This document shows, piece after piece, positions 10,922-58,261 of a DNA stretch of 64,000 nt. Numbering within the stretch: the first letter of the stretch is position 1; each line of letters begins with the position of its first letter. A program made the position numbers and the translations under genes. Under the pieces are notes generated by a model that worked only from the letters and a program-made list of their open reading frames with translations, was not told the DNA's origin and searched no databases. The stretch spans positions 1-64,000 of IMG/VR virus record IMGVR_UViG_3300042258_000071; one strand, written 5' to 3'. Source of the DNA: a virus. Its lineage: Duplodnaviria > Caudoviricetes.

Positions 10922-11364
10922 TTTCAATATCTAACTATACGTGGACTTAATATTAAGAGTTATTGCGAACACGCTAAAGTTAGATAAGATAGGTCGCTTA
11001 GATAGAAATATTTAAGTGAGCGCTCCTTAATTGACGGGGACCTCCTAAAGCCAAATCCACCAACCATATCTAGTGATAGAGTATGGGGCCAACTGTAATG
11101 GGTTGGGTAAGGTAAAAGAGATTTGGATACATGGACGATCCGCAGCGAAGCACCTCACACCTGTCGGGATGACAGCGATGAGATGAACGTTCAACGACTA
11201 AGGGATTCACCACCCTGTAGGGCCAAGGGGCTCGAAATAGGAGCAACCTTATCATCTCCCCTTTACGAGATGAAGGTTAAGATATAGTCTCGGCATCTGG
11301 GGAAATCCCAGAGCAGCACGTTATTGTGCGGGTAGAGAACTACCGAACTCTACTGAAGACACCG
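10922..11364 (+). ncRNA. group I intron (443 nt, no homing endonuclease ORF) in nvRNAP beta
   Basis: Core elements P TTGACGGGGA, Q GATCCGCAGC, R GTTCAACGACTA, S AAGATATAGTC; 5' exon ends in U (ACU pairs with GGU guide); terminal G at 11364; removal restores in-frame DRFGT|KGIECQVVPDEHMP. Confidence 0.92.
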
Positions 11365-12471
11365 AAAGGTATCGAATGTCAAGTTGTGCCCGATGAACAT
11401 ATGCCTGTCGATGAACAAGGCTTTCGAGCTGACGTTGTTGTCCATCCAGGGTCCGTTGTTGCCCGTATGAACCCAGGTCAGTTATATGAACAATTTATCA
11501 ACAGATGTTCAGAATTTGTACGTCGTAAACTTGAAAAGGTATATCCTACAAATCCTGATCTTGCTTTTGATCTTCTTATGGATTATTTTGGGGATATCAA
11601 TCCTAACTATCGTGACCTTGTGTTATCTGTTCGAAACACTCAAGAAGAACGTCATCTTCTTATTAGAGAATGTATCGAGGATAAAATCTATATAAACTGC
11701 CCACCTTCTCTAGATACAATGTATGACGACTACACCTATGAACGCGTCATGGCGAGACATCTTAAGGAGAACCCTGAACGTGCAACGGAGATGCTTGCAG
11801 AGAAAGGGTATGAACCTAACGACATTTTAGATGAATCACAATACACTGAAAATCTCATCTTAAAACTAAGTCAGAAATGGGGGTATGCTGAATCTCCTGT
11901 AACCTACACGATCCATGATGAACAAGGTATCCCTAAGACCTTTAAAACTATGAAGAATGTGTGCATCGGACCTCGGTACACATATATTCTATACAAAATT
12001 CCCTCTCCATCCTCCCCAGGTGTTGCGTATGTCTCACATTACGGTATCCCGATGAAGGGACCTTCTAGTGCTAAGATGGCTACAATGGCAGCACCAACCG
12101 CTATTCGAGAAGGGGAGGATGAGCTTCGCATCCTCTTACATGACATTCCTTCTGAAGACATGCTTAGATTTACAGGTCTTCAATCGGCTTCTCTTACAGC
12201 TGTTAATAAAGTTATCGAAGAACTCTTAGTCTCTGAACACCCAATGAACATCGATCGGTTTAACATTTCAACTGAAGAGATTCGCAATACACATGCTCCC
12301 ATCAACCTATTACGTCACATGATGGCAACAATCGGTGTTGACATTGTAGATACCTGTGCCACCGATGCCGATGTTCCTGACTTTATGAGGGGAGATTATT
12401 CTGAGGAAGATGATATCGATGCTGAAGATGAGATTAAAATAAGGGATGTTCTAGATGAAAAGAATCAGTAG
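11365..12471 (+). CDS. non-virion RNAP beta-like subunit, exon 2 (spliced product ~779 aa)
   Basis: KGI..VVPDEHMPVD..G.RADVVVHPGSVVARMNPGQLYE, IGPRY..LYK and REGEDE beta motifs. Confidence 0.9.
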   Translation, partial: KGIECQVVPDEHMPVDEQGFRADVVVHPGSVVARMNPGQLYEQFINRCSEFVRRKLEKVYPTNPDLAFDLLMDYFGDINPNYRDLVLSVRNTQEERHLLIRECIEDKIYINCPPSLDTMYDDYTYERVMARHLKENPERATEMLAEKGYEPNDILDESQYTENLILKLSQKWGYAESPVTYTIHDEQGIPKTFKTMKNVCIGPRYTYILYKIPSPSSPGVAYVSHYGIPMKGPSSAKMATMAAPTAIREGEDELRILLHDIPSEDMLRFTGLQSASLTAVNKVIEELLVSEHPMNIDRFNISTEEIRNTHAPINLLRHMMATIGVDIVDTCATDADVPDFMRGDYSEEDDIDAEDEIKIRDVLDEKNQ

Positions 12472-14401
12472 TCTTCAGTCAATTATTTCTGATCCAAATT
12501 ACATCGATGTGCTCGTTGAGCGCAAAACAGACTTGTATGAAATTCCTCTTGCAGAAGGCCCTTTCAAGATTGAGGCGAATTGGCTTCTTATAAATATAAT
12601 TATGTGGAACCCTTTCATTGTGAGAGGGTATCCTATTAAAAGGGAATATCTTCTGTATGATGAGGATATCGTAAAATCTAGTCTTCAACGTATTCACAAC
12701 AACATGTGGTTTGATGCAGATTTGGTACCTGGAATGGAGGCAGATCTTCTAAAAGAAGAAATGGCCTTTTGCCATAATGCAGCTTTTAATATCGCATTCA
12801 CACACCTGGGAAGTTATCACACATCGATCTCGTTATATGAGATCGAACAGTCTATGACACATCCGGAACTTGCACAAGCTACACATCTAAAATTTATAGC
12901 AGATGAGAGTATCAATGAGGTTGAGAAGCGTCTTGAGAAGGAATCCTCTAAGCTTTTAGAGGTATTCTCTGATCCTAAATATAAACATCTAAATTGTCTA
13001 TATCCCTACATCCGTCTTGGTGTTGCATCCAAACAGCAGATTCCACAAGTTCTACTTGCTGTGGGAACTAAGACGGATGTGAATGATTCTATGGTGCACC
13101 TTCCAATCGAGGGATCTTATTTACGAGGGATGAATAATATTCTTGAAGCAGCTGTTGATGCTTTAAGTGCTAAGAAGTCTGTTGGGTATAATAAATCGAA
13201 TCTTCCAAAGGCACAGTATACCAACCGACGTGCTCAGATCCTTGCATCTGTGATTCGAACCTTGCATCCTGGAGATTGTGGAACTCAGTTAACAACACCT
13301 TTCCTCTTAACTGCTCGGAAAGCAAAACATGCTAAAGGCATGTACATAAAGCAGCATGGTACGCTCATTGAACTGTCCTCACATAATCTCTCTGATTACA
13401 TTGGGAAGGTTGTAAATCTTAGATCTCCTTTAACCTGTCGACACACCGATGGGGTATGCGAAGCATGCTCTGGTCGTCTAGCACGCAATATGCATCCAAA
13501 TATGGTGATAGGGCTTGCATCTGTTATTGAGACAATATCTCCTATTGGTCAACTTCTTTTATCTAATAAACATTTCTCACAAACCTCTACTGTAACCTAC
13601 AACATGCCGCAAGTTGCAGATCTTATGTTCAGGGTTGATCGAGATAGAATTTATCTTAGGGAAAATCTTATCGATCATCAAATGCACCTACATGCTGTTA
13701 TACCGTTCATGTATTTCTCCCGCATCACGGATTTATCAGTAATAGATGACGATGCTCAGATCAACGACGCTGATTTCTCAGATGTTAGAGAACTTGCAAT
13801 CATAGACGATCGGTACGACGAGAACCCTCTCCCTCCAACGATCATGCTAGATGATAATAAAACGTCTCCTTACTTCACTAAAGAATTCTTACTCTATATC
13901 AAAAATAACCAAGACATGCTTACGATCACAGAAAGTGAAATTGTTGTCTCATTAGGTAAATGGGACGTACATGAAGCTATCATGGGATATGTCATGGAGA
14001 ATGCCTCCATGCCTCGTTTCGTGGATCGTATTACACGACTCTTTATGAAAGACATTCAAGACTATACATCTATTGAAGACGTTCTTAAAGATTTCACAGA
14101 TATCATTTACACCAAAGTTGAACCACATCTCTATCATATTTGTGTTGCACTGAAAGCTTGTATGGTAGTCTCCAATAATGATTATAGAGTTCCTTGTGTG
14201 ACAGATATTAATAATGTTAAATTCAGACCCCTCCTACACTCTATTCCGCAAAGATCTATTGGAGCCCAACTTGCGTTCGAAAGGACTGAAGGGTATCTTC
14301 AAAACCCTCGCGCATATACGATCCCTAAGATCAATGGTCCGTTCGATGCTTATGTGGGAATGATGGATTCTGATTATAAAACCTCAAGGAGAGGCGTATG
14401 A
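12455..14401 (+). CDS. non-virion RNAP beta'-like subunit, C-terminal part (phiKZ gp74-like)
   Basis: GDCGT, LRSPLTCRHTDGVCEACSG zinc site, QLLLSNKHF trigger-loop-like motif. Confidence 0.9.
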   Translation: MKRISSLQSIISDPNYIDVLVERKTDLYEIPLAEGPFKIEANWLLINIIMWNPFIVRGYPIKREYLLYDEDIVKSSLQRIHNNMWFDADLVPGMEADLLKEEMAFCHNAAFNIAFTHLGSYHTSISLYEIEQSMTHPELAQATHLKFIADESINEVEKRLEKESSKLLEVFSDPKYKHLNCLYPYIRLGVASKQQIPQVLLAVGTKTDVNDSMVHLPIEGSYLRGMNNILEAAVDALSAKKSVGYNKSNLPKAQYTNRRAQILASVIRTLHPGDCGTQLTTPFLLTARKAKHAKGMYIKQHGTLIELSSHNLSDYIGKVVNLRSPLTCRHTDGVCEACSGRLARNMHPNMVIGLASVIETISPIGQLLLSNKHFSQTSTVTYNMPQVADLMFRVDRDRIYLRENLIDHQMHLHAVIPFMYFSRITDLSVIDDDAQINDADFSDVRELAIIDDRYDENPLPPTIMLDDNKTSPYFTKEFLLYIKNNQDMLTITESEIVVSLGKWDVHEAIMGYVMENASMPRFVDRITRLFMKDIQDYTSIEDVLKDFTDIIYTKVEPHLYHICVALKACMVVSNNDYRVPCVTDINNVKFRPLLHSIPQRSIGAQLAFERTEGYLQNPRAYTIPKINGPFDAYVGMMDSDYKTSRRGV

Positions 14402-14745
14402 CAACCACCAATGCTCTTCTTCTTGCAGATGAGGCTGTGAACCTTCTTATATCCAAACTTGAGAAGACAGACAATCTAAAAATTGTAAACAAAGATGATA
14501 TCGTGGTATCCCTTTCTAAATATCGACACTTTCTATTCGTACAACTGCATTACGATGGTAGAGTGAGACATGGGAAGTGGTTGATACAAAATAATCTCTT
14601 AAAAAAATTCCATGCTTCCAGACGAGAATACAAAGACATCATGCGTCATCTCAAACTTGATGTGGGATTATCCCCTGTTGAAATAAGCTGTCTTCTAAAT
14701 ACTTCCATTGAAAAAGTTCATTGGAACATCTCAAAGTTAGAATAA
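14398..14745 (+). CDS. small protein with a C-terminal sigma-region-4/LuxR-like HTH
   Basis: GLSPVEISCLLNTSIEKVHWNISK; ATGA overlap with the beta' stop. Confidence 0.5.
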   Translation: MTTTNALLLADEAVNLLISKLEKTDNLKIVNKDDIVVSLSKYRHFLFVQLHYDGRVRHGKWLIQNNLLKKFHASRREYKDIMRHLKLDVGLSPVEISCLLNTSIEKVHWNISKLE

Positions 14746-14758
14746 TGCTATCGTCAAC

Positions 14759-14792
14759 AAGAGAGAAGGGAGCATTCGCTCCCTTCTCTCTT
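14759..14792. terminator. intrinsic terminator
   Basis: aagagagaagggagc-attc-gctcccttctctctt. Confidence 0.85.
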
Positions 14793-14911
14793 ATATCTAT
14801 ATTTCTTTTTATTTTAGGTTTTAGGCTATCTTATAAGGGATGTTTAAGTGCATACCCTTGTAAAAGAGGTTATATGTCGACGTAGCCATATTTCCATTAA
14901 ATCATTTTAAT

Positions 14912-16444
14912 ATGACCATCGGAAGGGTCTCTAACATGATTTTAGTTGAGAGAACACCTTTTAGTTTCAGGGTAAAAATTGATTACAAAGGTTGTCTGTA
15001 TGGAACAGATATTTTTATTCGAAAATATCAAAACAGTTTCACAAGGTGGGGGTTTGATCCTAAGTTAAATCGAGGGGTCCCAAAGGAGAAATATTTCTTT
15101 ATAGATAAAAAAAGAAACGTCGTATATTTCCCACGATATGATCTTAATCGATTTGTTCAACTCATTGAATCTGAAGGTGAAAGCATTCGATTTAAAGACC
15201 TCCCTTTATGTGAAGGTGCTGATATTGATATTTCTTTAAAATCTGGTATTCAAGATCAGAGTACTTTACAGACAGATGCCTTAGAATATTTAACAGGTCC
15301 TTTTGAACCTCTTAAAGGCATATCTCTTCAAACGGGGAAGGGTAAAAGTTATGTCGCCATTAAATACTGTGTTCTTCGTAAAAAAAGGGTAATGATTGGA
15401 TGTAAAGGACTTGTTGACCAATGGGTTGATGAAATCTTTGCATTTACAGATGCTAAAAAAGAGGATGTGTATATCATCCAAGGTCAAGATAGTCTCATCA
15501 AACTTCTAGATGGCATAGATAAAACAATCTTCCCCAAGTTTATTGTGTATTCCATTCCGACATTAAGACCTTATGCATTTGATGCGGATAATTATGAGGG
15601 CTCCCCTCTATTTGATGATCTCCCTCAGCTCTTAAATGTAGGGCTTAGAATTACAGATGAAGCACATCTTAATTTCCACTGCAACTATGTGATGGATCTG
15701 CGATTGTGTGTAAATCAGCTTATTCCTCTCACAGCAACTTTTGATGTCTCAGATAGCACTGTTAAACGTATCTTTGATGGACACTATCCCCCATGCGTTC
15801 GATTTGGAGAAGACATCCTTGATAAATATATTGATGTCTATGCCTACGGGTGTCGTTCTGGACATGGGGATATCCCAAGATATGCATATCAGACCCCTAG
15901 AGGATATAGCCACGTCATGTACGAAAAATGGCTTCTCACAAGAGCGAAATGGAAGCTTGAGTGGTTATGGTCAAGTGTTTACAGACTTATCATTAATGAA
16001 CAATATATTTCTAAATTTCCTAAACCTGGGCAAAAGTTACTCATCTTGTGTGAAACAAAAAATATGTGCAATTGGATCTCTGAGAGATTCAAAAGGGAAT
16101 ACCCTCAGTATAAAGACTCGACAGGACAGTTTCTACATGGGGACGATAAAGATCTCTTAAAAACTTTAAGTGTCATTGTTTCAACACCAAAGTCTTGTGG
16201 GACTGGTAAAGATATCAAGAGACTTATGTCAACACTAAACACTATATCGATTCGGAGTGAACCTTTAAACATTCAAATACTGGGACGTATACGAAAACCT
16301 AAACATCCTGGAGATAGTAAACAGGTTCAAATGTCATATGTCTTTAATAAATCTATTATGCCACAAGTGGATCATCATCACTTGCGAGAACGCATCTACA
16401 AACCAAGGGCAAAATCTTTTACAACTTACAACCTTCATAATTAA
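14912..16444 (+). CDS. SF2 (UvsW/Rad25-like) helicase, phiKZ gp75-like
   Basis: Motif I LQTGKGKS, II DEAH, III TAT, V GTGKDI, VI QILGRIR. Confidence 0.9.
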   Translation: MTIGRVSNMILVERTPFSFRVKIDYKGCLYGTDIFIRKYQNSFTRWGFDPKLNRGVPKEKYFFIDKKRNVVYFPRYDLNRFVQLIESEGESIRFKDLPLCEGADIDISLKSGIQDQSTLQTDALEYLTGPFEPLKGISLQTGKGKSYVAIKYCVLRKKRVMIGCKGLVDQWVDEIFAFTDAKKEDVYIIQGQDSLIKLLDGIDKTIFPKFIVYSIPTLRPYAFDADNYEGSPLFDDLPQLLNVGLRITDEAHLNFHCNYVMDLRLCVNQLIPLTATFDVSDSTVKRIFDGHYPPCVRFGEDILDKYIDVYAYGCRSGHGDIPRYAYQTPRGYSHVMYEKWLLTRAKWKLEWLWSSVYRLIINEQYISKFPKPGQKLLILCETKNMCNWISERFKREYPQYKDSTGQFLHGDDKDLLKTLSVIVSTPKSCGTGKDIKRLMSTLNTISIRSEPLNIQILGRIRKPKHPGDSKQVQMSYVFNKSIMPQVDHHHLRERIYKPRAKSFTTYNLHN

Positions 16445-16550
16445 CCATACCAACCTTATAAGAGGAGAGGGTTCGAACCCTCTTCTCTTATATTCTATTA
16501 TCTGAAAACGTTATATGATATGAAAAAATAGCATAAAAGGATTCTCCTCT

Positions 16551-17294
16551 ATGGAAGTTATTTTACAGACAATTGGGGATAAAACCAATCAATTCCCAGA
16601 ATATCAGTTTAATGTTTTCTACCCTATCGCCATTATGTATCAAGATCCAAAATCTGAGAATGTTTATTTTAAATTTGTTGAACCCCTATCGCTTGTAGAT
16701 GGATCTACCCTTGGTCTTAAATCTAAAACACCTTTTCTCTTAGCAGTTGATTTTGTAACACGAGAAGAGTATCATATTAATCTTCGACGGTTAAGGTATG
16801 TATTTCCGATAACCAAAGAATCGTTAGATGCGATCGCACTTGCAAATTCTAAAGAGACAATTTTTGAAGCAGGTGTTATACTTGAAAGCCTCTTTACTAA
16901 AGAATCTGTGAATATTGCAAATATTGATGGTTTTGGGTTTAATTATATTGCTAAGTATAATGATCTCCTTGAGAAGTTTAAAACCATTAAATTTTCAGCA
17001 GATGCTAATATTCTAGATCATGAAAATACATCAGATGAATTCTCACGGGGAGTCTCTAAGTTTGCAGAAGTTCTTAGACAAATTGTTGCAACCTCAGATC
17101 TCCCCGCCCCTCAAAAAGATCACATGCATGAAATGGTTGCAGAAGCATATCACGCTGCCCCTTATGCATACTCAAAAGATATTCGTATTAAAGAAGTTGT
17201 TACTAAGGTAAACTTCTTATCCCGGCAAAATGCTGAGCTCATCACGCGATGTGCTAAAAATGGTATCGATGTTTCAGATATTACCACACCTTAA
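16551..17294 (+). CDS. hypothetical protein (247 aa)
   Basis: ORF with SD; no recognised motif. Confidence 0.7.
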   Translation: MEVILQTIGDKTNQFPEYQFNVFYPIAIMYQDPKSENVYFKFVEPLSLVDGSTLGLKSKTPFLLAVDFVTREEYHINLRRLRYVFPITKESLDAIALANSKETIFEAGVILESLFTKESVNIANIDGFGFNYIAKYNDLLEKFKTIKFSADANILDHENTSDEFSRGVSKFAEVLRQIVATSDLPAPQKDHMHEMVAEAYHAAPYAYSKDIRIKEVVTKVNFLSRQNAELITRCAKNGIDVSDITTP

Positions 17295-17306
17295 ATGAGG
17301 ATATAG

Positions 17307-17594
17307 ATGGCTAAAAATGACATCCTTAAAACTCTTGAGAAAACTCTTTCTCAGGATCTCCACATGCAACATGTTTCTAACGGTTTGGGATTTGAAGATT
17401 ACATCCCATACCTAAAAGGTACTTATCTCCCACAACGTAATGTGGGTCTTCGTAAGTTCTCCATATTAACATCCATTGAGAAGCCTCGTCTTAAGAAGAT
17501 TCTTCAGGGAACGGAATACGCCACAAATGATGAAGTGGATAAATTGCGAGCGGCTGTTGAGAGTATAGAGTCTAAATATAAACGTTTTAAATAA
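17307..17594 (+). CDS. small XRE-like HTH protein
   Basis: NVGLRKFSILTSIEKPRLKKILQG..ATNDEVDKL pattern; GAGG SD. Confidence 0.45.
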   Translation: MAKNDILKTLEKTLSQDLHMQHVSNGLGFEDYIPYLKGTYLPQRNVGLRKFSILTSIEKPRLKKILQGTEYATNDEVDKLRAAVESIESKYKRFK

Positions 17595-17681
17595 CAACAA
17601 GAGAGAGGTGGGATTTACCCACCTCTCTCTTGATCTTATGAGTTATTTTTTTACATCTCCTAGCTAAAGGATAATGTTACA

Positions 17682-18752: not shown

Positions 18753-18855
18753 ATACACCATTATATGCATTACCTCATTTAGGTTATGTAATTTGTTATG
18801 TGTGAGGAAGCATATTTTAACTCACACATGTTGATACTGTACCTTTGCGCAAAGG

Positions 18856-19998: not shown

Positions 19999-20026
19999 GA
20001 CCCCTTTCTACCAACTAGTTTAACAG

Positions 20027-20058
20027 ATAAGAGGGAGGGGTTAACCCCTCCCTCTTAT
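20027..20058. terminator. intrinsic terminator
   Basis: ataagagggagggg-ttaa-cccctccctcttat plus T-run. Confidence 0.85.
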
Positions 20059-20105
20059 TTTTGTATGTTTGAAAATGATGGGTAGATTCAAGAGAGTTAC
20101 AACTA

Positions 20106-20113
20106 TATATTAC
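20106..20113 (+). promoter_or_regulatory. phiKZ-type early promoter
   Basis: tatatattactattttga. Confidence 0.75.
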
Positions 20114-20170
20114 TATTTTGAATCTAATTGTTAGATTTAAGTGCCAGTAATAGTACAAGATAGGTTAAAC

Positions 20171-20350
20171 ATGTATAAGTTTTCAGACACCGATAAAGAC
20201 GATGATGATCTTGACTCGCTATTTCCACAGGATGAATTCACCTCAGATACAGTGTCCAACCCTTTAGATGAAGGCGGGGATGGTCTTGATGAAGATCTCT
20301 TTGATAGCGACTCTGAGGAGTTAGATGAGCTCTATGGAGAAGATCGTTAA
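20171..20350 (+). CDS. small highly acidic early protein
   Basis: 59 aa from ATG 20171 with 24 Asp/Glu; first ORF after the early promoter. Confidence 0.6.
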   Translation: MYKFSDTDKDDDDLDSLFPQDEFTSDTVSNPLDEGGDGLDEDLFDSDSEELDELYGEDR

Positions 20351-20417
20351 TATTCTTTTTATTAATTTCTTTTTAGACACGTTTATATGTACACTATGCA
20401 TATAGGAGTTTCTTTAA

Positions 20418-20630
20418 ATGTTTCTAAACTTCAGAATATGGCTTATTAAAAAGCTTATTAGAACACACCCCTTCATGGCGAATGTTGTCGTCTATGAAGG
20501 GCGTGTCAGTAACTCTGTAGCAACCTATGGGGTTACGGAATGTGTGAACGATCCTTCTATTGAAGGTGTCACTATCGAACCTGTTAAATATCCATCTGAT
20601 CTACAAGCCGATATCGTTTTAGGTATCTAG
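20418..20630 (+). CDS. hypothetical protein (70 aa)
   Basis: AGGAG SD, ATG start. Confidence 0.6.
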   Translation: MFLNFRIWLIKKLIRTHPFMANVVVYEGRVSNSVATYGVTECVNDPSIEGVTIEPVKYPSDLQADIVLGI

Positions 20631-20654
20631 TCTCAACACCATAAGAACATAGGG

Positions 20655-24781: not shown

Positions 24782-25363
24782 ATGCATCTCGACATCGACA
24801 TGTCAGATCTTACATCCCCTTGTTCTGTTATATTTGATACGTCAGATGTTTTAATGAACCCCACTTTATCTCAAAAATATTTAAATATTCACCCTCATCA
24901 ACATGCCTGTATTCGTCTGTTACCTAAACAGTGGGAAGATCATAAAGAATTATCTCTTGTAACAACGTTCTTTTATCCTTTTGGTAAGGTGAATATTTTA
25001 GGGAAATCTATAGACAACTTAAAAGACGTCATTAAACAGAACTTCCATCATCAGATGATCCCGTTAAAATATGAAAATGATCTCTTAACAAAAGAACGCC
25101 TTTTGGCAACATTAACCGATTTGGTAAGTGCAAAACCTTCTGATAAAATTATAACTTTAAAGCATACCTCAAAATTAACAGATAAGGTAACTGAGCACAT
25201 ATTTTTACATGGGTGCTTAACGACTCATCGTAAGTTTATCCAGTATCAATACACTAATAATGATGCAACAGGGTTGTTTCATCGATATCAAATTCTATCT
25301 CAGAACAGTGAAGGTAAAATTCATGTAGGTACTTACACTCTTAGAAAACTTTTAAAGTATTAA
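24782..25363 (+). CDS. hypothetical protein (193 aa)
   Basis: ORF, no recognised motif. Confidence 0.6.
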   Translation: MHLDIDMSDLTSPCSVIFDTSDVLMNPTLSQKYLNIHPHQHACIRLLPKQWEDHKELSLVTTFFYPFGKVNILGKSIDNLKDVIKQNFHHQMIPLKYENDLLTKERLLATLTDLVSAKPSDKIITLKHTSKLTDKVTEHIFLHGCLTTHRKFIQYQYTNNDATGLFHRYQILSQNSEGKIHVGTYTLRKLLKY

Positions 25364-25650
25364 TGTTATGGACATTTCAGTTTTTCATGTTGGTTTTCCT
25401 GATATGTCTTTCCTCCCTCAAGAGTATATTCTAATTGATAGACACTGGTGATGCATATGTCTCTTAGAGTGTATTCTACCTTGTTCTTGTATAGTGAGAA
25501 CCCATGAGAGGTCCCTTAAGGGACCTCTCATGGTTATTTTGTGTGTTTTAATGCCGTAAAGGTATAGATTGTTTTTCTAACAGATATTTCATAATGTGTT
25601 ATGACTAAGGAGGAGGTATCAGGACTTTAAGGGTATCTGGATATCATTAG
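25361..25650 (+). ncRNA. candidate structured non-coding RNA
   Basis: Long-range pairing of 25397-25416 with 25609-25624 encloses several hairpins, including a 14-bp stem with 3 G-U pairs (25421-25434/25464-25477). Confidence 0.35.
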
Positions 25651-25661
25651 ATGCGGAGAAG

Positions 25662-25692
25662 TAAGAGGAAGGGGAGACTCCCCTTCCTCTTA
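25662..25692. terminator. bidirectional terminator at the end of the tail operon
   Basis: taagaggaagggga-gac-tccccttcctctta plus T-run. Confidence 0.85.
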
Positions 25693-25710
25693 TTATTTTT
25701 TTTTGTTAAT

Positions 25711-26160
25711 TCACAGAGTAGATGCTTCAATAAAGAGGTTATCGATGTCTTGACTTGTTAAAGAGAGTTCGTCTCCAACCAAAGAAATCCATTCCCAGTT
25801 ACGCCAAATCTCTGTTGCGTATTCCCAATCGATTTTAACTTTGGCTTTAAGAGTAACATCTTCAATATTGTCAATAATGGTTTCAGTAGATGCTAGAAGA
25901 TCGTGATTTAAAAGAACCGTACGAGCTTGTCGCATAGAGATTTTGGTGGGGACTACAATTGGAGGAACCGGATATGTCTCTCGGATAAAGTATTTAGCCC
26001 CGTCCCAAATAGCAACTTGTGTCCCCGTCAAAGAAGGTGGTACATGTCTTACCCAGTTAGGTTTACGTCCTTGTTTCGGATCATACTCTTTAAAATTTCC
26101 TGTATAAATATTTTTATCATCAAGTTCATAAATGTAAATGACTTCTATTTCTTCAACCAT
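25711..26160 (-). CDS. tail fibre assembly chaperone-like protein
   Basis: IYELD..NIYTG N-terminus; ISMRQAR..L, WEYATEIWRN and LTSQDIDNLFIEA motifs; directly downstream of the collar-domain genes. Confidence 0.75.
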   Translation of the reverse strand: MVEEIEVIYIYELDDKNIYTGNFKEYDPKQGRKPNWVRHVPPSLTGTQVAIWDGAKYFIRETYPVPPIVVPTKISMRQARTVLLNHDLLASTETIIDNIEDVTLKAKVKIDWEYATEIWRNWEWISLVGDELSLTSQDIDNLFIEASTL

Positions 26161-42709: not shown

Positions 42710-42829
42710 ATCCGATTCCCTTCTACTACGTATTTGGTATATGGTAATTCCTATATTACATTTAGTATTTTAAATCTCTAGATATACAAAATGATAGTTA
42801 GGAGAGGGGTTCCCCTCTCCTAACTATCT

Positions 42830-43270
42830 AATGCTTTACTATAAGATAACTCTTATATTTTATCTATTATTTCCAATTAAATTTTTTAAATCATACACTT
42901 TTAAAAGGTTTCATTAAAAATTTCTTATAGAGTACTGCGTTGATTTTTGATTTGAAATTAATTTGAATTTGTAATTTTATTATTTTGAATTTTGGTTTTG
43001 AAATTTGTATAGAGTTATATCTAGTATAATTATTATAACATAGTTATGTCTTCGAATATATTAAATAATTAAAGTAACCGTCGCTTGACGTTTTAGAGGT
43101 TTTGAAAAATAATGAAAAATCCCCTAATAATAATTTAAATTATACATTTGTATTATTATATTTAAACATTCACTCATTTAGAGGTGTTTTATCTTCAAAT
43201 TTCTAAAATATATATTTCATGAAAGTGAAGCTTAGTATAGAGACTGTAAGTTGAAATGAGAGAAAGTATT
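42830..43270. other. very AT-rich non-coding region with clustered TTTGA-like motifs
   Basis: Visibly more AT-rich than its flanks, no credible ORF. Confidence 0.6.
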
Positions 43271-43274
43271 TAAA

Positions 43275-48158: not shown

Positions 48159-48327
48159 TTATAACTCCAGGTGGTGGATGGTGGAAATATCGGACATACC
48201 TCCTACCACTTGCTCACAGCGTGTACCCCAATTTATCCCCTTAATATATGGGAATTTAAAGTCCATATCATGAAAACGCTAATCTGCTGAAGATTTAGAG
48301 TAATAATGCTCATAGTTCTATCATCTA

Positions 48328-48335
48328 TATATTCC
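48328..48335 (+). promoter_or_regulatory. early promoter variant (TATATTCC)
   Basis: tatatattcctatt upstream of the Nudix gene. Confidence 0.45.
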
Positions 48336-48374
48336 TATTAGGATTAATAATAATGACCTTTATGGAGGTTTAAC

Positions 48375-49874: not shown

Positions 49875-49888
49875 CTTGGAGATCTCTT

Positions 49889-50227
49889 ATGACGCCTCAT
49901 TTAGACAAAGGATCGTTTACACATCTTGGATGTGAATATGATCTAAATATTCTACTTGAAAATGTCGCTGGTCGTCAGACCGTAGAAGTTCCTGTATCTG
50001 AGCTCATATGGATCTTTAAGTATGATACGAATGTTGATTCTGTGAAGACGAATGTGGATCGATCAAAACCGATACTCATCCATGAGGATCCTACCAGTGG
50101 TAAACTGGTTACGATCGATGGACTACATCGATTAACATTGGCTGCTCAGCTTGGTGACTATGTCATTCAAAGCATCTTTGTTTCGGACGATGATTTAAAA
50201 GATGCTGCATATAAAAATAGCGTGTGA
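49889..50227 (+). CDS. stand-alone ParB/Srx N-terminal-like domain protein
   Basis: PILI.......LVTIDGLHRLTLA motif. Confidence 0.75.
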   Translation: MTPHLDKGSFTHLGCEYDLNILLENVAGRQTVEVPVSELIWIFKYDTNVDSVKTNVDRSKPILIHEDPTSGKLVTIDGLHRLTLAAQLGDYVIQSIFVSDDDLKDAAYKNSV

Positions 50228-50232
50228 TATAA

Positions 50233-50282
50233 ATAGAAGGTGGGTCCCATGTGGGACCCACCTTCCTCTTCTATTTTTTTTT
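50233..50282. terminator. bidirectional terminator
   Basis: gaaggtgggtccca-tg-tgggacccaccttc plus T-run, between convergent genes. Confidence 0.8.
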
Positions 50283-50294
50283 GTTAGAATAGGT

Positions 50295-51740
50295 TTAAGT
50301 ATCAAAATACATGGAGACGACTTCATCCTCAAGAGTGTGCATAACGCGTTCACCAACTCCCATCACAAATGGAGAGTAGATGATACGGTCATTCACAGCA
50401 GTCGCTCCAAAGAACATATCAATATCATCCCCACTCTCTGTCTTGGCCTGACTTGGCATGATAGCCCCGATAACAGTCTTAGCTTGTGCACCAATAACAA
50501 GTTTATCCCCAGGGCCACATTGAAGATCTTCATCGATCATGATCGTGATCATGACTGTATCTTCTTCAAAGTCTACACCCTGATACTTAGTCCCTACAGG
50601 GATACGGTGTGGGGGAAGGTATTGACGTTCTTTAGACGTTCCACGTACCTCTTTACTTTTCTTTAAGAGTTGAGATGATGTTTTCTTAACAAGCTCTTGA
50701 ATAGAAGGGTGTAAGTCTTCAAAGGGACATGCATGATAGACACGGATAGCTGCGATCGTTCCATGATACTTAGCAGTTGGCATGGAGCGGTTAAGGGATG
50801 CTAGGAATTCCATGGTCTCGGGATCATCGATACTGTCCATAGAATTCAAATCTCCCTCCTCCATGATCATCAAATAATCTGTTGTTTCAACAACATCCCC
50901 AACCTTCACGATGTTAGTAAGCAGGGTATTATTTGTAATTGAAATAGTACGAAGATGTGCAGGTGACATGTGAAGACGTTTAGAAAAGTTAGAAGATATT
51001 TCACAAGAATCTTCAATTGTTTCAGATTTCTCAATAAGAGCAATTTTTGCTGTAAGACCATGTTTCCAGTTCACCTGTTTAGAATCAGGATCTTTCTCAA
51101 AGAACCCACTGTTGTAAACGAGGATATCACCCTTCTTAAACTTCTCACCCTCTTTAACATTGAGGACATTGGTCTGTTTAAGATAGGTTCCAGAAACACT
51201 TGTAAAGGATTCCCCAAAGGAGAAGATTTCAAATTGTTCAGATTCTTTATGTTTCTTAGGTGACAGTCTAATGTAAACAACAGGGCCTTCTTTGAGTTCT
51301 CGAAACTCTTTCTGTGTTAACATTGATGTGTCAGGGACATCTTCAAGTGATTTAAAGGGAAGTTTCTCAACAACTTCAAAAGGTGAAGTGTCATTTACAT
51401 TGACAACATTTCCCTGTTTAATCTTAGAAGCATCTTTGTCAGAACGAATCATGTAGATGAAGGTGTTGTTATCATAAGCTTTTTTTATATCGTCTTTCTT
51501 GATATTTAAAGATACTTCTTTAGAAGTTTTAATTTGTTCAAGATCATATTCTAATTTAAGAAGACCTAGCTTCTCATTAATACCAATAACTTTCCCATTA
51601 CGCTTAGCAGCGCATGCAAAATTCTCAGATGGGTAATGTGCAATAACTTGCTCCATACCCGTTCTGATTCGAAGAGTTTCACCTTCTTGAGATGGTACAT
51701 GATGAGAGAGCTGGATAGAACAAAATGACAGGCGTTTCCC
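50295..51740 (-). CDS. virion RNAP beta-like subunit (phiKZ gp178-like), exon 2
   Basis: GKRLSFCSIQ..H, IRTGME, ETIEDSCEIS, GDKLVIGAQAKTV, DIDMFF..NDRI. Confidence 0.9.
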   Translation of the reverse strand, partial: GKRLSFCSIQLSHHVPSQEGETLRIRTGMEQVIAHYPSENFACAAKRNGKVIGINEKLGLLKLEYDLEQIKTSKEVSLNIKKDDIKKAYDNNTFIYMIRSDKDASKIKQGNVVNVNDTSPFEVVEKLPFKSLEDVPDTSMLTQKEFRELKEGPVVYIRLSPKKHKESEQFEIFSFGESFTSVSGTYLKQTNVLNVKEGEKFKKGDILVYNSGFFEKDPDSKQVNWKHGLTAKIALIEKSETIEDSCEISSNFSKRLHMSPAHLRTISITNNTLLTNIVKVGDVVETTDYLMIMEEGDLNSMDSIDDPETMEFLASLNRSMPTAKYHGTIAAIRVYHACPFEDLHPSIQELVKKTSSQLLKKSKEVRGTSKERQYLPPHRIPVGTKYQGVDFEEDTVMITIMIDEDLQCGPGDKLVIGAQAKTVIGAIMPSQAKTESGDDIDMFFGATAVNDRIIYSPFVMGVGERVMHTLEDEVVSMYFDT

Positions 51741-52095
51741 CGTACTATTCCATAAAGGTTCGGTATCTCCTTCATGCGCAGCATAACCTGCAGCTATGGC
51801 TTTCACCATAGACTAGATCATATCTTTACCTTGAGTCATATGACTGTTAGGTAACTCCCATTTCGAGACCCCTTGGTCCTACAGGCTGACAAAGCCTTGA
51901 TCGTTGAACGTTCATCTTAAGGATGTCTCACGACAGTCTTAAGACACTTCGCTGCTGGTTGCCCAATCTTCACATTTTTCAAACTATCACGCTTGTCGTT
52001 ACCAACTACGTTGTAGTATGTAAAGCTCTAAGGGGGTTCTAGCAATTAGAGAGCATTCACTTAAAACTTTTCAGTTAAAAGCGGACAAATAGTTT
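51741..52095 (-). ncRNA. group I intron (355 nt, no ORF) in vRNAP beta
   Basis: P1 GAU|AAA-cua-UUUGUC; R GUUCAACGAUCA and S AAGAUAUGAUC; terminal G; removal gives in-frame TQDD|GKRLSFCSIQ. Confidence 0.92.
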
Positions 52096-55000
52096 ATCGT
52101 CTTGAGTGCCACCTGGCATAAGAAGAGCTGGTGTACTTAGAATGTTAGAAGGTTCTAAATCGCTAGAAGCCTGCTGTTCACCATACATCCCTCGGGTGTT
52201 AATAATGCGAGGGTTTGCAGACATGTAGGCATTAAAAGCAACTTTTCCAGAATCAGGTACAGACTCAGAAAGAATTCCTACACCATCTTTAGGATACTGA
52301 CGATCCGTAATCACAAATGATTGTTGCGACCGACCACCGGCACCCCCATATGTTGTTTGTGTTTTAGATTTGATATCATGAATGGGGTTAATACTGTCAA
52401 CTGGTTGTAGAGTAGGATCTTGAACAATAGATAGGAAAACTGCTTCAGGGTTGATAGAGAAACTCTTATTAGGATCACGACTAGCTTGATATCGAGCAAA
52501 TTCACGTGCCATAGCGTTATAAACGAAATATGGGAATCGTTCATATCCGCGTGTTCTAAAGTTTTCTAAACTAGAAGCATCTTTTGCTTCCACTGTTGAG
52601 AGCATTTCTGTTGCTCGATACAGGAGACCCTTAACTGTAGTAGGTTCCCCCATGCTAATCAAAACTTCCCGTGTAATAGGATCTACAAATAGATCAAAAA
52701 AACTGTTGATCCCTTTTAGAATATTTGTAGAGTGACCTGCATCAGAGAGTAGTGTGAAGTAAGTATCGACGATATCAAAATCGTCAAGATTCCAAGCTCT
52801 CGTTTCAAAGCGCTTAAGGCCACTTAAAATAAGAGACCCTGTAAGAGGGTATCTTGAAAAGACAAGTTTCCCATCTTTAAAGGGGATCATGATGTCATCT
52901 AGTTTAACAATAGCCCGTTTACCTGTTGGGTAAAACCTATAGGGGTGTTTAATATCTTTAAGAAGTGTTGAGAGACCAAATCGATATCCTAAGAAAAATG
53001 CAATCGGCCATGATTTATCTTGAAGTTTAATCTCAACCCATTCAGAAGGTGTTTTAGAAAGAGGAATCTGATCCCCATACAAAGTATTTAGAAGCTCTCG
53101 TATGGTAAACATCTCAACTGGGTGATCTTTGTCTTTGACACTGATAACGCGAATGATGTTATCTTTACCATAGAACATACTGTCACCATTCTTCTCACCA
53201 CAGAAAACCCCATATTTTTCTTCTAGAGGTTCACGGTACTTTTGAAGGAGACTACTTTGGTCTATTGCTTCAGTTGCAAGTTGAAGAGTTGTTGCAGTAA
53301 GACGATTTTTATAATTAAATGTGAAATGATAATCGTTTAATTTAAGACGACCATAACTCCCCATGAGGACCCCATAATCATACGGGACCTTATCTTCGGT
53401 AGAACTTGTTCCAAATTCAAGATAAATAAGACCTGCCTTCTTAAGAGAGGAGATGTATTTCTTGATACTAGATTTAAAGCTATATGCTGCGCGTTGAGTT
53501 CTTTCTACAAGTGCTTTATTAAAATTAGATGAAAGGTTAACACGATGAGGACTTACTTTGCAGATCGGTAGATTGATCTGTTGCTTCGTCATTCGATAGT
53601 CCACCCCATTGACCCTAATGGTTCCTTCCGGACTCACAATAGGTAGTCTAAAACGACACGTATGTCGCTTTCCCTTGGGATCTTTAAAAGTTATGGTGTA
53701 ATGCCTAATATAATTAAACTCAGTAATTTCATCTTCTTCTTTAACGTCTTGAAGTATCATCCCAACGCCACTAAAAGAAGATAAAACAAGGGCAACATCT
53801 CGGTTGAGAGATTCTCGAATATAAACATTGTCAAAATCCATAATAGAAGATTTCGTCATGGATTTATCTTCAACATAATCTTCTAAGAAAGAGAGTTCTA
53901 CTGATGGATCAGTGTTAGGTTCCGTGTTGAGATATGACGCAATGCTTCTACCAGCAAGATCGATATTGGCATAATGGTTCTCAGCTTCTAAGACCGTTTC
54001 TTTCTGTTTAGAAGTGAGGTTAAGATTCGGATCATTTAAGATGCTTTTAAGTGATGTTGAAATATATTCATTGTGGTCTGGAGCATCCACATAAGAACTT
54101 ACAGGAAGAGGGTCTTCTGGGAGTAAAGATTTAGTGTCAATTGTTGAGAGGTCTGTACTTTGATAAAGAGTGTGTTCAATGGGGAGATCTGTTGGGTCTA
54201 CCGGAACATCTTCTACGTCATCGGCGTCCTCCATGACATCCGTTAAAGTAGAAGTTACACTATCTGCAAATTTATCAATATCTTCATCTGTAAAGTCATC
54301 GTCTAAATTTTGAGTAGTGTCGTCCTCATTTCTAGGTTCAGATTGATTATCTTTCTTTTCTTTAAGGTCTTCAAGAAGGTCAGCTGCTTTAAACTTCATG
54401 ACGTTAACATGTCGAATCATCATGATGTTGTCAGTTTTATTAGGCAACATTAAAGGGAGATCACCAAGATTATAGATGATACCATCTGATGACTGTCCAC
54501 ATGTTAAAATGACATGGATGCGATCAAGATGATCTTTTATATCAGGAATCTTAAAAAGGGAGGTTGTAGCATTCTGAGTTACAATCCCTAGCAAATGGAT
54601 CATGTAGTAATACGAGGGATCCCCTACAACCTTAAGGGATGCAGGCGTAATTTCCTCAAAAGCTCTTAGGAACTGTTCACGTTTAAGGGGTTCTGCTGAA
54701 ATAGGAATTTGAATGAACTGGAGTTTCTCAGGATGACTTTCTGCAATTTTAAGTATTTGATACAACATGGATTTCAAAAGAAGATCCATCTTACGATAAG
54801 CTACAAGTCGACCTGTCATGTAAGTATACAAGAGCGGGTTGTAACTAAAAATGGATAATGCATTTTTACGAGATAAGATCTGTTTTACATCTGTCATACG
54901 TTTTGTAAGTTTACTTGTCTGATTGAATTTTTGAATTTGACTGTTAAATTTTACAGCATTGTGAATGTAGTTTCCAATTGGTGCTAACTGTTTATCATCT

Positions 55001-55275
55001 TTTGGAGGGAGTTCTGTTACATGATGGGCATAGACCGGAAATTCTTCATTTACAATAAAGGGATTAGAAACATCGATTGAGATAGCGCCAGACTCGGTTA
55101 AAAACAATTTATCTGCAATATGCAGTACACTATCAAAGGGAAGTTGTGCATTGCTAAAGTCTGAGATTTTCTTAGGAAGATCCGATCTCCGCCACGCCAT
55201 ATACCCCCTACGAAACACTGGGTACTGCATTCTTTCTTGTGCGATCTGATCACGTTCTAAAATGTTGTCATCCAT
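52096..55275 (-). CDS. virion RNAP beta-like subunit, exon 1 (spliced product ~1541 aa)
   Basis: Start MDDNILER after AGGAG; LPIV..EG.IRVNG, R.RGYER, GAGGRS and GILSESVPDSGKVA motifs. Confidence 0.9.
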
Positions 55276-55366
55276 AGTTATACTCCTATTAAAATATATA
55301 CCTACACATAAAAGTATAGGGGAAGCATCATACCATACATCGGTGCGTGTCATCTATATTTAGATA

Positions 55367-55374
55367 TATATTAC
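55367..55374 (+). promoter_or_regulatory. phiKZ-type early promoter
   Basis: tatatattactattttga. Confidence 0.75.
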
Positions 55375-55403
55375 TATTTTGAATTGTCGCAAGGAGACTG
55401 ACA

Positions 55404-55967
55404 ATGAACGTTTGGAATTGGATTAAATCTTTCACTAAACAAAATGAGGGGGTCCCAAAATTTATCGCTAATCCTCATAACCAAAAAGTTCCTGAGCAAG
55501 AAATTTTTCAGGAACTTGAGGCCGTAACTTCTCAGTTCCCACTAATACTCAAAGCCGATGGTGATGTTTCAAAACGTTCACCGATATATCTCACTCTTCA
55601 ACAGGCGAATTTTACTGAAGATGATCTTGGAAATCCTGTATCTTCCAGTGTGATCTTGGAAAAGATGGGGAGGGTCCCTATTTTAAATATATTTGATCAA
55701 ACAGATATAATCATTTCCAAAAATTACCTCAAGATTGGAAAGTTGGCAAATGATTCATTGCTTATTCGAGTCAATTGCCGAATCAAACTTGAGGGTTCTA
55801 ATGAAGACATGTCTGATCACCTTACGATGGTGGTCCCTCCCTCCCGTAAAGAGGACGTGCACGATGTTCTCATTACATATGCCGGTAAGCATCTGGAAGG
55901 TGGAATCTCCGACATCAAATGGGAAAAACGCGTTCTTAACGTTCTTAAAGCATTACCCACAACTTGA
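55404..55967 (+). CDS. hypothetical early protein (187 aa)
   Basis: AAGGAG SD; followed by hairpin ~55971-56004. Confidence 0.75.
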   Translation: MNVWNWIKSFTKQNEGVPKFIANPHNQKVPEQEIFQELEAVTSQFPLILKADGDVSKRSPIYLTLQQANFTEDDLGNPVSSSVILEKMGRVPILNIFDQTDIIISKNYLKIGKLANDSLLIRVNCRIKLEGSNEDMSDHLTMVVPPSRKEDVHDVLITYAGKHLEGGISDIKWEKRVLNVLKALPTT

Positions 55968-56000
55968 AACATACAAGCATGGTGGGATTTCCCACCATGC

Positions 56001-56300
56001 TTGTATTTATGCATTTGCAGCACCAATGACGTATGGAGAACTATGGGTTTAATGTCATATAAGGAGAGTGACTCAACAGACTCTGATAGTTATGACCTTA
56101 ACTTGAGGATATCTGAGCTTATATTGTTTTACAAATTTTTAATGAAATATCCAACACTAAACCCTTCCATTGATCAGTATATCCATGATTGTGAAAGGAT
56201 CGACTCTTTGAAATTTATCATCCCATCTGAACTCTATAATCATGCGACAGCCATATTAAATAACGTGGCGCAGGAACATGGGTTCTTCTTCGAAAGGTAA
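56001..56300 (+). CDS. hypothetical protein (true start probably ~56043)
   Basis: GGAG upstream of ATG 56043. Confidence 0.55.
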   Translation: MYLCICSTNDVWRTMGLMSYKESDSTDSDSYDLNLRISELILFYKFLMKYPTLNPSIDQYIHDCERIDSLKFIIPSELYNHATAILNNVAQEHGFFFER

Positions 56301-56306
56301 TCTCTT

Positions 56307-57224
56307 ATGTCAGCATTTTCAACCATGTCTAAAGTAGCAGCTGGTGCAACCGCATTCACCGGGGTCTATTATGGCTTCAAAGTCGGAAGTTATATTTTTA
56401 AAGAAAATACGTTCCGGAGTATGTCAAATGAAATATACTGGGAGAATCTTAAGAAAATATTAACAATAATATTTTCCGCATCATCTCGCACGGGGGTGAC
56501 TCTTCCCGATGGATTATGGGTTGAAACCATCAAACTTGCGTGGATAAGGAGTCTTGGAGATGGATTTGCGCCTAAAACCAACCCGTCAGTGCAAGAACAG
56601 CGGGTAATTGCGGTTACGCTCGTCGAGGAAATCTTCGAGAAAATCATCGAGAAAATTGAGCTTAAGAGTGCATATGAGAAAATCAGTTATGCCCATAAGG
56701 GTCTCTCTAACACATCGTGCCCAGCACCCCATGGGTGGCAGGGTTTCATCGATGAGTTCTTTACCGAGAAGGGTTATGAGATTCCTGTAAATGAGCAAGG
56801 CCCTTATTGGGGGCAGCTTGAGTTCATTTATGAGATCCTTGTAGCTGCAACACCGCGTTCGCAGGTCGTGCTAAACGATGGTGCTTGGGAGGGGATCTTG
56901 GGTATGGTTCTTGAAAATATGACACCTGAAGATCAGGAACTTCATGCCGATCCAAGGAGTCATCGATTGCTCCACATTGCTCTTATTGAGCATGTCTACG
57001 AACGCTTGATCAAAAATGTCGGTCTCAATGTTGCGTATAACCGAATTTGCTATGCGCATAAAAATCTTAATGACAAGTCTTGTCCGGCACATTGCGGCTG
57101 GGATAAGTTTATCGAAACCTTCTTTGAAGAGAAAGGTTTGAAATTCGAATCTGACGACGACATATCACCCCCATCAAACAAAGGTCTTCATGAGACCGTA
57201 TCACGAGGAGGTTCCTCATCATGA
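56307..57224 (+). CDS. protein with an N-terminal hydrophobic segment and two tandem ~120-aa homologous domains
   Basis: YW..L...R..V.L.DG.W ... AY..I.YAHK.L...SCPA..GW..FI..FF.EKG occurs twice. Confidence 0.8.
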   Translation: MSAFSTMSKVAAGATAFTGVYYGFKVGSYIFKENTFRSMSNEIYWENLKKILTIIFSASSRTGVTLPDGLWVETIKLAWIRSLGDGFAPKTNPSVQEQRVIAVTLVEEIFEKIIEKIELKSAYEKISYAHKGLSNTSCPAPHGWQGFIDEFFTEKGYEIPVNEQGPYWGQLEFIYEILVAATPRSQVVLNDGAWEGILGMVLENMTPEDQELHADPRSHRLLHIALIEHVYERLIKNVGLNVAYNRICYAHKNLNDKSCPAHCGWDKFIETFFEEKGLKFESDDDISPPSNKGLHETVSRGGSSS

Positions 57225-57409
57225 ATTTTGCATTCTGGTTCGTCTTTCTCGGACTGATGCCTGCCCTCGCCATTTTCATCTTTGAGACAGTGTGCTGGGT
57301 ATTGCGGCGCATCAATCGTGACGATGCGAATGACGATGTCGAACATGCCGATGAGGCATATTTAAAAGAGTCCCTACTCTTGAAGAATTCTACGTTCTTC
57401 AGAAAATAG
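57221..57409 (+). CDS. small single-pass membrane protein
   Basis: GGAGG SD, ATGA overlap, hydrophobic N-terminus. Confidence 0.65.
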   Translation: MNFAFWFVFLGLMPALAIFIFETVCWVLRRINRDDANDDVEHADEAYLKESLLLKNSTFFRK

Positions 57410-57418
57410 GGAACCCAT

Positions 57419-57670
57419 ATGGGGGACCCTTTCTTAGGGTCCCCCATATTTTTTTTCAATGGTATGATACGAGAGATGCAGCTCGTCCACTTCTATATGT
57501 ATCGATCCGACATGACACCTCAAATTCTTGCGGTCCATATCGCTTTTATATTGCTGTTTCTAGGATTTATAGGATTCTTTGTAGCAATGATTTTTTACGC
57601 ATATAAGAGCGGTGATATAGAAGAGTTTTACACTGACCTTCTCAAGTTCTTTTTCCTTAGAAAGACATAG
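57419..57670 (+). CDS. small membrane protein (start probably downstream of the hairpin at 57417-57449)
   Basis: ILAVHIAFILLFLGFIGFFVAMIFY hydrophobic helix. Confidence 0.55.
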   Translation: MGDPFLGSPIFFFNGMIREMQLVHFYMYRSDMTPQILAVHIAFILLFLGFIGFFVAMIFYAYKSGDIEEFYTDLLKFFFLRKT

Positions 57671-57672
57671 AG

Positions 57673-57707
57673 ATAGATAAGAGAGGGGGTGCCCCCTCTC
57701 TTATCTC
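57673..57707. terminator. bidirectional terminator
   Basis: agataagagaggggg-tg-ccccctctcttatct between convergent genes. Confidence 0.85.
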
Positions 57708-57709
57708 TA

Positions 57710-57898
57710 TTATACATTTTTAAGAGGATTTTGATAGGTCATCTGAATCATCATAAGGTCTATCATATCACTAAACGTTCCCTTTAAGAACTTACCTTCA
57801 GGAGTTAGAAATGATCTTGGACTTTCCATGTATTCAGACAGTTCACGTGTAGTGTCTTCACCCCAAATGTAATTCACAGATGAAGTATCCCCATCATA
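57710..57898 (-). CDS. virion RNAP beta'-like catalytic subunit (phiKZ gp180-like), exon 2 (absent from the ORF track)
   Basis: Reads YDGDTSSVNYIWGEDTTRELSEYMESPRSFLTPEGKFLKGTFSDMIDLMMIQMTYQNPLKNV*, completing DYDGD. Confidence 0.9.
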   Translation of the reverse strand, partial: YDGDTSSVNYIWGEDTTRELSEYMESPRSFLTPEGKFLKGTFSDMIDLMMIQMTYQNPLKNV

Positions 57899-58261
57899 CC
57901 TTTATATTCCATAAAGGATCGGTCGCCCCTTATGCGCAGCATAACCTGCAGCTATGACTTTCATCATAGAGTAGACTATATCTTCACTATAGGTTGTGTG
58001 GTGTAACCCTTAAGTGTCTCCTATTTCGGGTCCCTTGACCCTACTCCCCGCTACGGGATAGTCGTTGAACGTTCACCATACTACTGTCGTCACGACATGT
58101 ATAAGGCGCTTCGCTGCTGATCATCCATTGTAACATTTGATACCTTTTTGAACTATCACGCTCACCTTTTCAGGTCACGTTGTAGTGTATCAACTTTAGG
58201 ACTTTCCAGCAATTAAGGAGATATCATCTTAGCTATTTCTAACTAAGTGGACTATCAATTA
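57899..58261 (-). ncRNA. group I intron (363 nt, no ORF) splitting the catalytic DxDGD motif
   Basis: P1 GAU|UA-auuga-UAGUC; P UUGCUGGAA, Q GAUCAGCAGC, R GUUCAACGACUA, S AAGAUAUAGUC; terminal G at 57899; spliced LGAD|YDGD. Confidence 0.93.

Follow-up and report, generated by a model that had tools for sequence, protein, structure and literature searches.

The closest described counterparts of the introns treated here are the group I introns of phiKZ gp179, phiKZ gp72, and PhiPA3 gp210 (Birkholz 2024, PMC11620839). These introns carry HNH endonuclease genes, which lie 5' of the ribozyme core in the P1 loop region. Here, we describe five introns of the same core type that lack such genes, I1 to I5, in the phage genome of IMG/VR record IMGVR_UViG_3300042258_000071. 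The window is the stretch of DNA analyzed, bases 1-64,000 of this complete, phiKZ-like genome of 236,443 bp with terminal repeats. It contains I1, I2, and I3, which interrupt genes of the non-virion and virion RNA polymerases (nvRNAP and vRNAP) at the codons of the phiKZ gp72, PhiPA3 gp210, and phiKZ gp179 introns, respectively. The cores, however, are not close kin of these, and the phage itself is distant from its closest cultured relatives (36-37% amino acid identity to phiKZ-like phages). The introns belong to a well-known type of selfish element, here probably after loss of its endonuclease; the one aspect that has been less explored is an apparent swapping of sequence between the copies.

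Introns without an open reading frame (ORF) are also present at the same codons in cultured phages, namely in PhiPA3 (450 nt) and PA7 (307 nt) at the codon of I1 (site 1) and in the EL-like phage HHBS47_1 (415 nt) at that of I2 (site 2). They share with the introns here a U as the preceding exon base and a G as the terminal intron base. While these three genomes keep other introns with endonucleases, all five introns here are without one. A complete genome in our collection (G009) is similar in that no endonuclease is seen in its three introns. PhiPA3 (loci L251 and L451) has four group I introns, two showing no endonuclease, one at the I1 codon.

RNA polymerase (RNAP) and gyrase genes that are split by introns are described as common in such phages (bioRxiv 2020.12.14.422802). 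In Bacillus phage AR9 and the Staphylococcus MarsHill-like jumbo phages, the RNAP, gyrase, and terminase genes hold numerous introns, and the vRNAP beta gene of AR9 is divided into six exons with one annotated endonuclease. The AR9 introns form a genome-specific clade and share long tracts. However, the 18 Rfam matches of AR9 are arranged in tandem clusters and its endonucleases are numerous, whereas each gene here has one intron. The T4 nrdB intron, with its defunct I-TevIII and trans homing by MobE, and the cyanophage psbA intron with F-CphI have no working intron endonuclease and a free-standing one in the genome, as is the case here. In those two systems the endonuclease gene is adjacent to the intron, but here it is 6.6-103 kb away.

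The introns were identified with the Rfam model RF00028, which has a gathering score of 50 bits, and the three in the window have E-values of 6e-16 to 3e-21. The five introns are as follows.

I1, 10922-11364, plus strand: 443 nt, group IA2, ORF-less, in nvRNAP beta; RF00028 70.7 bits.
I2, 52095-51741, minus strand: 355 nt, group IA2, ORF-less, in vRNAP beta; RF00028 71.3 bits.
I3, 58261-57899, minus strand: 363 nt, group IA2, ORF-less, in vRNAP beta'; RF00028 88.3 bits.
I4, genome 104658-105020 (outside the window), plus strand: 363 nt, ORF-less, in the TOPRIM DxD motif of gyrase B between DAD and SHG; RF00028 74.5 bits.
I5, genome 231171-231553 (outside the window), plus strand: 383 nt, in phase 2, between RNPSI and QKG at the RNPS motif of the nvRNAP beta' N-subunit; RF00028 68.8 bits.

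An earlier note, made from the letters of the window, had described I1 to I3 as a family of three. Its coordinates, lengths, phase 0, stop distances, and absence of an ORF are borne out by the sequence, and all three introns pass the Rfam search with Infernal that it proposed. The family, however, has five members in the complete genome rather than three. Beyond I1 to I3, the window has no further match at any Rfam cut-off, and no sixth intron was found in the 236-kb genome by Rfam or nhmmer. I1, I2, and I3 are all in phase 0 and reach in-frame stops after 21, 6, and 0 codons, respectively. No stop-free run of more than 68 codons is present in any of their six frames, and a blastx search for endonuclease relics in all five introns gave none (best E 0.21). 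The preceding exon U and the terminal intron G are present in all five, and in each the exon U pairs with a G in P1. An assembly artefact has been ruled out: a second, independent assembly matches without a difference along 21 kb that include I4, and the exons on either side of every intron are the correct ones.

Excision of I1, I2, and I3 yields open frames of 779, 1567, and 581 amino acids, and the spliced gyrase B frame is also open after excision of I4. The phrog_3295 profile runs unbroken over the I1 junction, from position 403 to position 404. The boundaries of I1 and I5 are confirmed by a sister phage in sequencing run SRR22428450, which was found by protein searches (74-79% amino acid identity), because its nvRNAP beta (779 amino acids) and beta' (494 amino acids) genes are intron-less and align over both junctions. 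Removal of I1 and I5 restores host proteins that are colinear with the sister proteins; the I1-spliced product aligns to its counterpart with one gap. The sister genes also show that I1 and I5 are dispensable at this evolutionary distance. Five gene models that automatic callers had split are now corrected.

The insertion points lie in the active-site motifs that the earlier note had named. The first lysine of exon 2, just 3' of I1, aligns with phiKZ K394, one of two conserved active-center lysines (PMC8287921). I2 is located directly 3' of the DD pair treated in PMC11620839, and I3 interrupts the DxDGD magnesium triad of vRNAP beta'. All five intron-carrying genes encode core enzymes.

The ribozyme anatomy is conserved. 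Helices P1 to P9 are present in all five introns, together with P9.1 and P9.2. With helices assigned by hand and checked by script, P3, P4, P7, and P9 are fully paired in each intron, and P8 of I3 is paired at five of six positions. The mark of subgroup IA2 is a pair of stems, P7.1 and P7.2, between P7 and P3', with a GUA linker (PMC3428280). Both stems and the linker are found in all five introns, which assigns them to IA2. Long-range pairing between L7.2 and L9.2 is known in IA2 introns from T4 sunY and td. In the introns here, L7.2 has an invariant AAGG and L9.2 a complementary CCGA or CCUA; covariation between them was not found. The internal guide follows the exon, with GUC pairing to exon GAU in I2 to I5 and GGU pairing to exon ACU in I1. 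P1 of I1 is extended to a hairpin of about 70 nt (folding z -2.7) with a U-G pair at the splice site, and the long 5' end of I5 also folds as a P1 extension (z -4.8). I2 and I5 have in common the P7 variant GAUCA/UGAUC, a double compensatory change that 16 of 177 cores show. In P5a, P9, and P9.2, the differences that separate I3 from the corresponding sister intron come as paired changes. From the paired helices, the compensation in P7, the guide-exon covariation, and the paired changes of I3, we infer that purifying selection keeps the introns splicing.

Insertion sites were surveyed in about 300 homologous loci. Insertions were called with profiles of the two exons, near-identical loci were merged to lineages, and low-scoring calls near the sites were left out (some inserts hold two introns). 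The sample is weighted to relatives of the query, and the counts hold among the loci listed. At the exact codon of site 1, introns with an ORF occur in 3 lineages and ORF-less introns in 2, and 40 lineages are empty. The corresponding numbers are 17, 13, and 84 at site 2 and 6, 3, and 54 at the codon of I3 (site 3). All three codons therefore hold ORF-bearing introns in relatives, which answers the site comparison that the earlier note had called for. Its implied rarity of ORF-less introns was overrated, as they make up 18 of the 44 occupied lineages over these sites. Seven of eight intron ORFs checked at the window sites are HNH-type by Pfam. At the I5 codon, neither the sister nor any of 64 lineages has an intron. 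No endonuclease-bearing intron was found at the exact codon of I4 or I5, in a sample in which gyrase loci are few; no relatives of the gyrase gene were found in viral contigs, and site 4 is barely surveyed. The phiKZ gp56 intron was considered for the I5 codon and rejected, as it lies about 35-40 codons downstream.

Relatives also have introns a few bases off the exact codons, and group I matches occur in 27 of 37 related records, with up to 18 per record. Some arrangements in this set are unusual. A NUMOD4-HNH gene (Pfam) lies inside a site-2 intron in antisense to the host gene at L138:8492-9544, and likewise in L140 and L141; ORFs of similar size occur in L400, L405, L407, L416, and L429. 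Gut-phage introns near site 3 hold antisense ORFs of about 370 amino acids. In the site-3 region of vRNAP beta' in L162, L170, and L171, an insert of 750 nt consists of two back-to-back cores within the catalytic motif, and four cores are found within 1.5 kb in genome G023 (79059-80515).

The sister phage provides an endonuclease-bearing counterpart of I3. Its site-3 intron is 1497 nt long, and its first three and last ten bases are the same as those of I3. The two cores are 89% identical by blastn and 94% over the tree columns. The sister intron has a 362-amino acid NUMOD4-HNH gene in the P1 loop, which in I3 consists of five bases. The simplest reading of this pair is loss of the endonuclease gene from I3, an account that the earlier note overlooked and that the sister phage displays directly. 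A comparable loss is seen in PA7, which has the phiKZ gp72 intron minus about 911 nt of the gene, with an identical core (L238 versus L125). No exon co-conversion was detected beside site 3 between this phage and its sister.

Taken together, we consider it probable (roughly 0.7) that the five are group IA2 introns that still splice themselves in cis, that they have reached the part of an ordinary homing cycle in which no endonuclease is left, and that they are held in place by the catalytic motifs that they interrupt. None of the five has a homing endonuclease, and I1, I2, and I3 occupy sites that hold endonuclease-bearing introns in relatives. I3, and by analogy I1 and I2, would have arrived by HNH-driven homing and then lost the gene by deletion in the P1 loop. 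Splicing of each transcript, in which guanosine would attack the U-G pair in P1 and ligation would follow at the terminal G, would make the introns nearly harmless. In a catalytic motif, only base-exact loss would be viable, so the ribozymes may persist. Immunity to rival endonucleases would be a by-product, and cores that share one recombination-prone genome would have exchanged segments by gene conversion.

Several observations count against this account. A long-read study saw phiKZ introns unspliced under its conditions (PMC10914365). Among close kin, with the sister covered at nvRNAP beta, nvRNAP beta', and vRNAP beta', no precursor with an endonuclease was found for I1, I2, I4, or I5. The sister could also have gained its HNH gene, as the direction of the change is unproved, and neutral persistence is indistinguishable from weak selection at the level of sequence.

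One suggestion of the earlier note was that the ORF-less introns may be kept as shields that disrupt the homing sites of competitors. In this explanation, selection would retain introns that destroy the targets of HNH nickases from co-infecting relatives. As the idea requires, each of the three window sites holds an ORF-bearing intron in some relatives. If I3 were absent, the sister HNH would meet a spliced beta' junction that agrees with its own in 36 of 42 bases. PhiPA3, which has the intron, suffers no harm from gp210, which cripples phiKZ (PMC11620839). However, nothing found shows selection for shielding. The sites are empty in most lineages (64-78%), and the exact I4 and I5 codons showed no endonuclease-bearing intron in the sample described above, in which gyrase loci are few. 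Around site 2, phiKZ and this phage have different bases at 26 of 42 nt, which makes the known nickases unlikely threats. I-HmuI and I-HmuII, furthermore, cut intron-plus DNA as well (PMC3428280). We therefore regard selection for shielding as unlikely and shielding as a plausible by-product of the introns. Disruption of the homing site is a property of any such intron, and the immunity of intron-plus alleles comes with it. The sister and this phage now form a matched pair, one intron with and without HNH, so that a single enzyme and two DNA substrates would allow a direct test of the shield idea.

The earlier note also suggested that production of both polymerases depends on splicing. This is true by construction, as the exons carry catalytic residues that unspliced RNA cannot give, but there is no sign of a regulatory role. 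A regulatory gate, in which splicing tunes polymerase and gyrase production to the state of the host, would fit the confinement of all five introns to core enzyme genes, and growth-dependent splicing has been reported in T4 (Sandegren and Sjoberg 2007). Occupancy, however, is patchy: the sister lacks I1 and I5, and most relatives are without these introns. Homing introns gather at conserved catalytic codons in any case (PMC2988022), and no sensing domain was seen in the intron cores. A regulatory gate is thus very unlikely.

The search for free-standing endonucleases that the earlier note had proposed found one gene.

Genome 97498-98727 (outside the window), plus strand: free-standing HNH gene with helix-turn-helix repeats, 404-409 amino acids, directly 3' of the gp80-like vRNAP beta' gene.

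Searches for GIY-YIG, HNH (PF01844), and LAGLIDADG_3, together with an HMM and with tblastn of 66 endonuclease ORFs taken from relatives, detected no other endonuclease in the genome. The gene has an intact-looking HNH motif, and trans mobilization has precedents in collaborative homing and T4 MobE, so that this enzyme might cut intron-less alleles and spread the introns. Co-conversion in T4, however, reaches about 2 kb (PMC2790892). Trans homing is unlikely because the polymerase introns lie at distances of 40, 46, 87, and 103 kb from the gene, and even the gyrase intron I4, at 6.6 kb, is beyond that range. The protein is also only faintly like the intron-borne HNHs (best E 8e-4), and a single enzyme that serves five unrelated sites is implausible. 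Among its three homologs, only L131, which is full-length, also follows a gp80-like gene, which suggests a target in that neighbor. The suggestion of the earlier note is accordingly not supported, and we consider this explanation highly improbable. In AR9 (L130:7080-8777), a free-standing endonuclease gene directly follows the gp80-like subunit gene; it has no detectable similarity to the HNH protein here.

The five introns resemble each other, with pairwise identities of 59-81% and the highest value between I2 and I5. Among 120 collected introns, which did not yet include the sister, the best match of each was an intron from its own genome. The trees are less consistent. In the first, the five introns formed one clade (support 97/94). 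The second recovered I2-I5 (100/99) and retained four of the five introns, with I1 not placed. In the third, to which the sister was added, the pairs (I2,I5) and (I3,sister) were joined at 99/83, and neither I1 nor I4 was placed. Every tree pairs I2 with I5, at support of 100/98 or better, but the single five-member clade is not robust and was discarded. Approximately unbiased (AU) tests reject site-wide clades, with p 0.018 for site 1 and p 0.008 for site 3, and also the grouping of I2 with the PhiPA3 gp210 intron (p-AU 1e-4); AU tests of single pairings are mostly not significant. The instability of the trees fits mosaicism of the cores.

Shared tracts point in the same direction. I4 and I5 have 50 identical nucleotides over the variable P8, a run that includes 33 polymorphic columns (permutation p 1e-4) and has no near match in other loci. 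The shared-tract test is significant in five of ten intron pairs after correction. I3 differs from the sister intron at 17 of 27 positions in P6a and at 24 of 327 positions elsewhere, and the P6a version of I3 is otherwise found only in I4 and I5. Identical tracts of at least 40 nt occur in 20 of 198 within-genome pairs versus 2 of 3827 between-lineage pairs. The phiKZ gp179 and gp56 introns (L124, L125) share 83 identical bases in their 3' part. It is thus quite likely, as far as alignments can tell, that intron cores in this genome exchange segments by gene conversion, and the family resemblance may exist because of this exchange. Two points detract from it: the P6a window was picked after viewing the alignment, which inflates its significance, and recent common origin can also yield shared tracts.

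The resemblance has also to be weighed against intragenomic spread, in which a resident ribozyme is copied to new sites through GUC/GAU pairing, by reverse splicing or by relaxed endonuclease cutting, rather than by homing site by site. I2 to I5 is the best case, since the two are 81% identical, stand as sisters in all trees, and share the rare P7 variant. The empty I5 codon of relatives and the AU rejection of site-wide clades at sites 1 and 3 also favor spread, and the 12 AR9 introns tested form one clade as well. A GAT that fits the guide precedes I5 here and is found in 0 of 56 empty alleles; it may, however, post-date the insertion, and gene conversion alone could give the likeness of I2 and I5. 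In the tree that includes the sister, the partner of I3 is the sister intron at site 3. The unstable five-intron clade and the mostly non-significant single-pair AU tests weaken spread further. No reverse transcriptase was found in the genome, and reverse-splicing mobility is without direct experimental proof (PMC3984707). Intragenomic spread is therefore possible but tentative. A broader combination, in which the phiKZ-like cores form a recombining pool that swaps helices and I5 is a recent endonuclease-independent jump of I2 chosen by guide-exon pairing, is doubtful. If true, exchange together with the I5 jump would provide a natural example, open to testing, of a phage intron that transposes by reverse splicing. 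Segment exchange by itself would weaken the value of intron trees as evidence on past homing. We found no published statement of core exchange in phiKZ-like phages, in a search outside of which most subscription papers (AR9 genome, Twort) fell.

The subunit names given in the earlier note are correct by tblastn to phiKZ gp71/73, gp178, and gp180. The exons in the window are as follows.

9689..10921, plus strand: nvRNAP beta C-terminal subunit exon 1, ends in DRFGT; phiKZ gp71 homolog, phrog_3295 positions 9-403, PDB 7OGP_C E 5e-30.
11365..12471, plus strand: nvRNAP beta exon 2, starts with KG; phiKZ gp73 homolog, phrog_3295 positions 404-533.
52096..55353, minus strand: vRNAP beta exon 1, ends in QDD; phiKZ gp178 and PhiPA3 gp211 homolog, phrog_3148 E 2e-174.
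50295..51740, minus strand: vRNAP beta exon 2, starts with GKR; PhiPA3 gp209 homolog, phrog_3148 E 8e-86.
58262..59818, minus strand: vRNAP beta' N-terminal subunit exon 1, ends in GAD; phiKZ gp180 homolog, phrog_2986 E 5e-131.
57710..57898, minus strand: vRNAP beta' exon 2, 62 amino acids, starts with YDGD; 84% identical to the sister exon.

The genes for vRNAP beta' and vRNAP beta lie next to each other in phiKZ and PhiPA3 but are separated here by three oppositely oriented ORFs at window positions 55404-57224. The window also has gaps that are free of ORFs and of group I matches, at 20007-20631, 25360-25714, and 42769-43260, the first of which begins at a two-way terminator-like hairpin. 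Outside the window, a 540-amino acid ORF at genome 228215-229837 had no match in PDB, PHROGs, or Atlas, and chimallin, the mark of nucleus-forming phages (Chimalliviridae), was not identified in the genome. This ORF lies just before the gp55 homolog, which is the position of chimallin in phiKZ. Homologs of it are found at the equal position in L272, L294, and L330, and L474 has a 541-amino acid ORF at the matching position.

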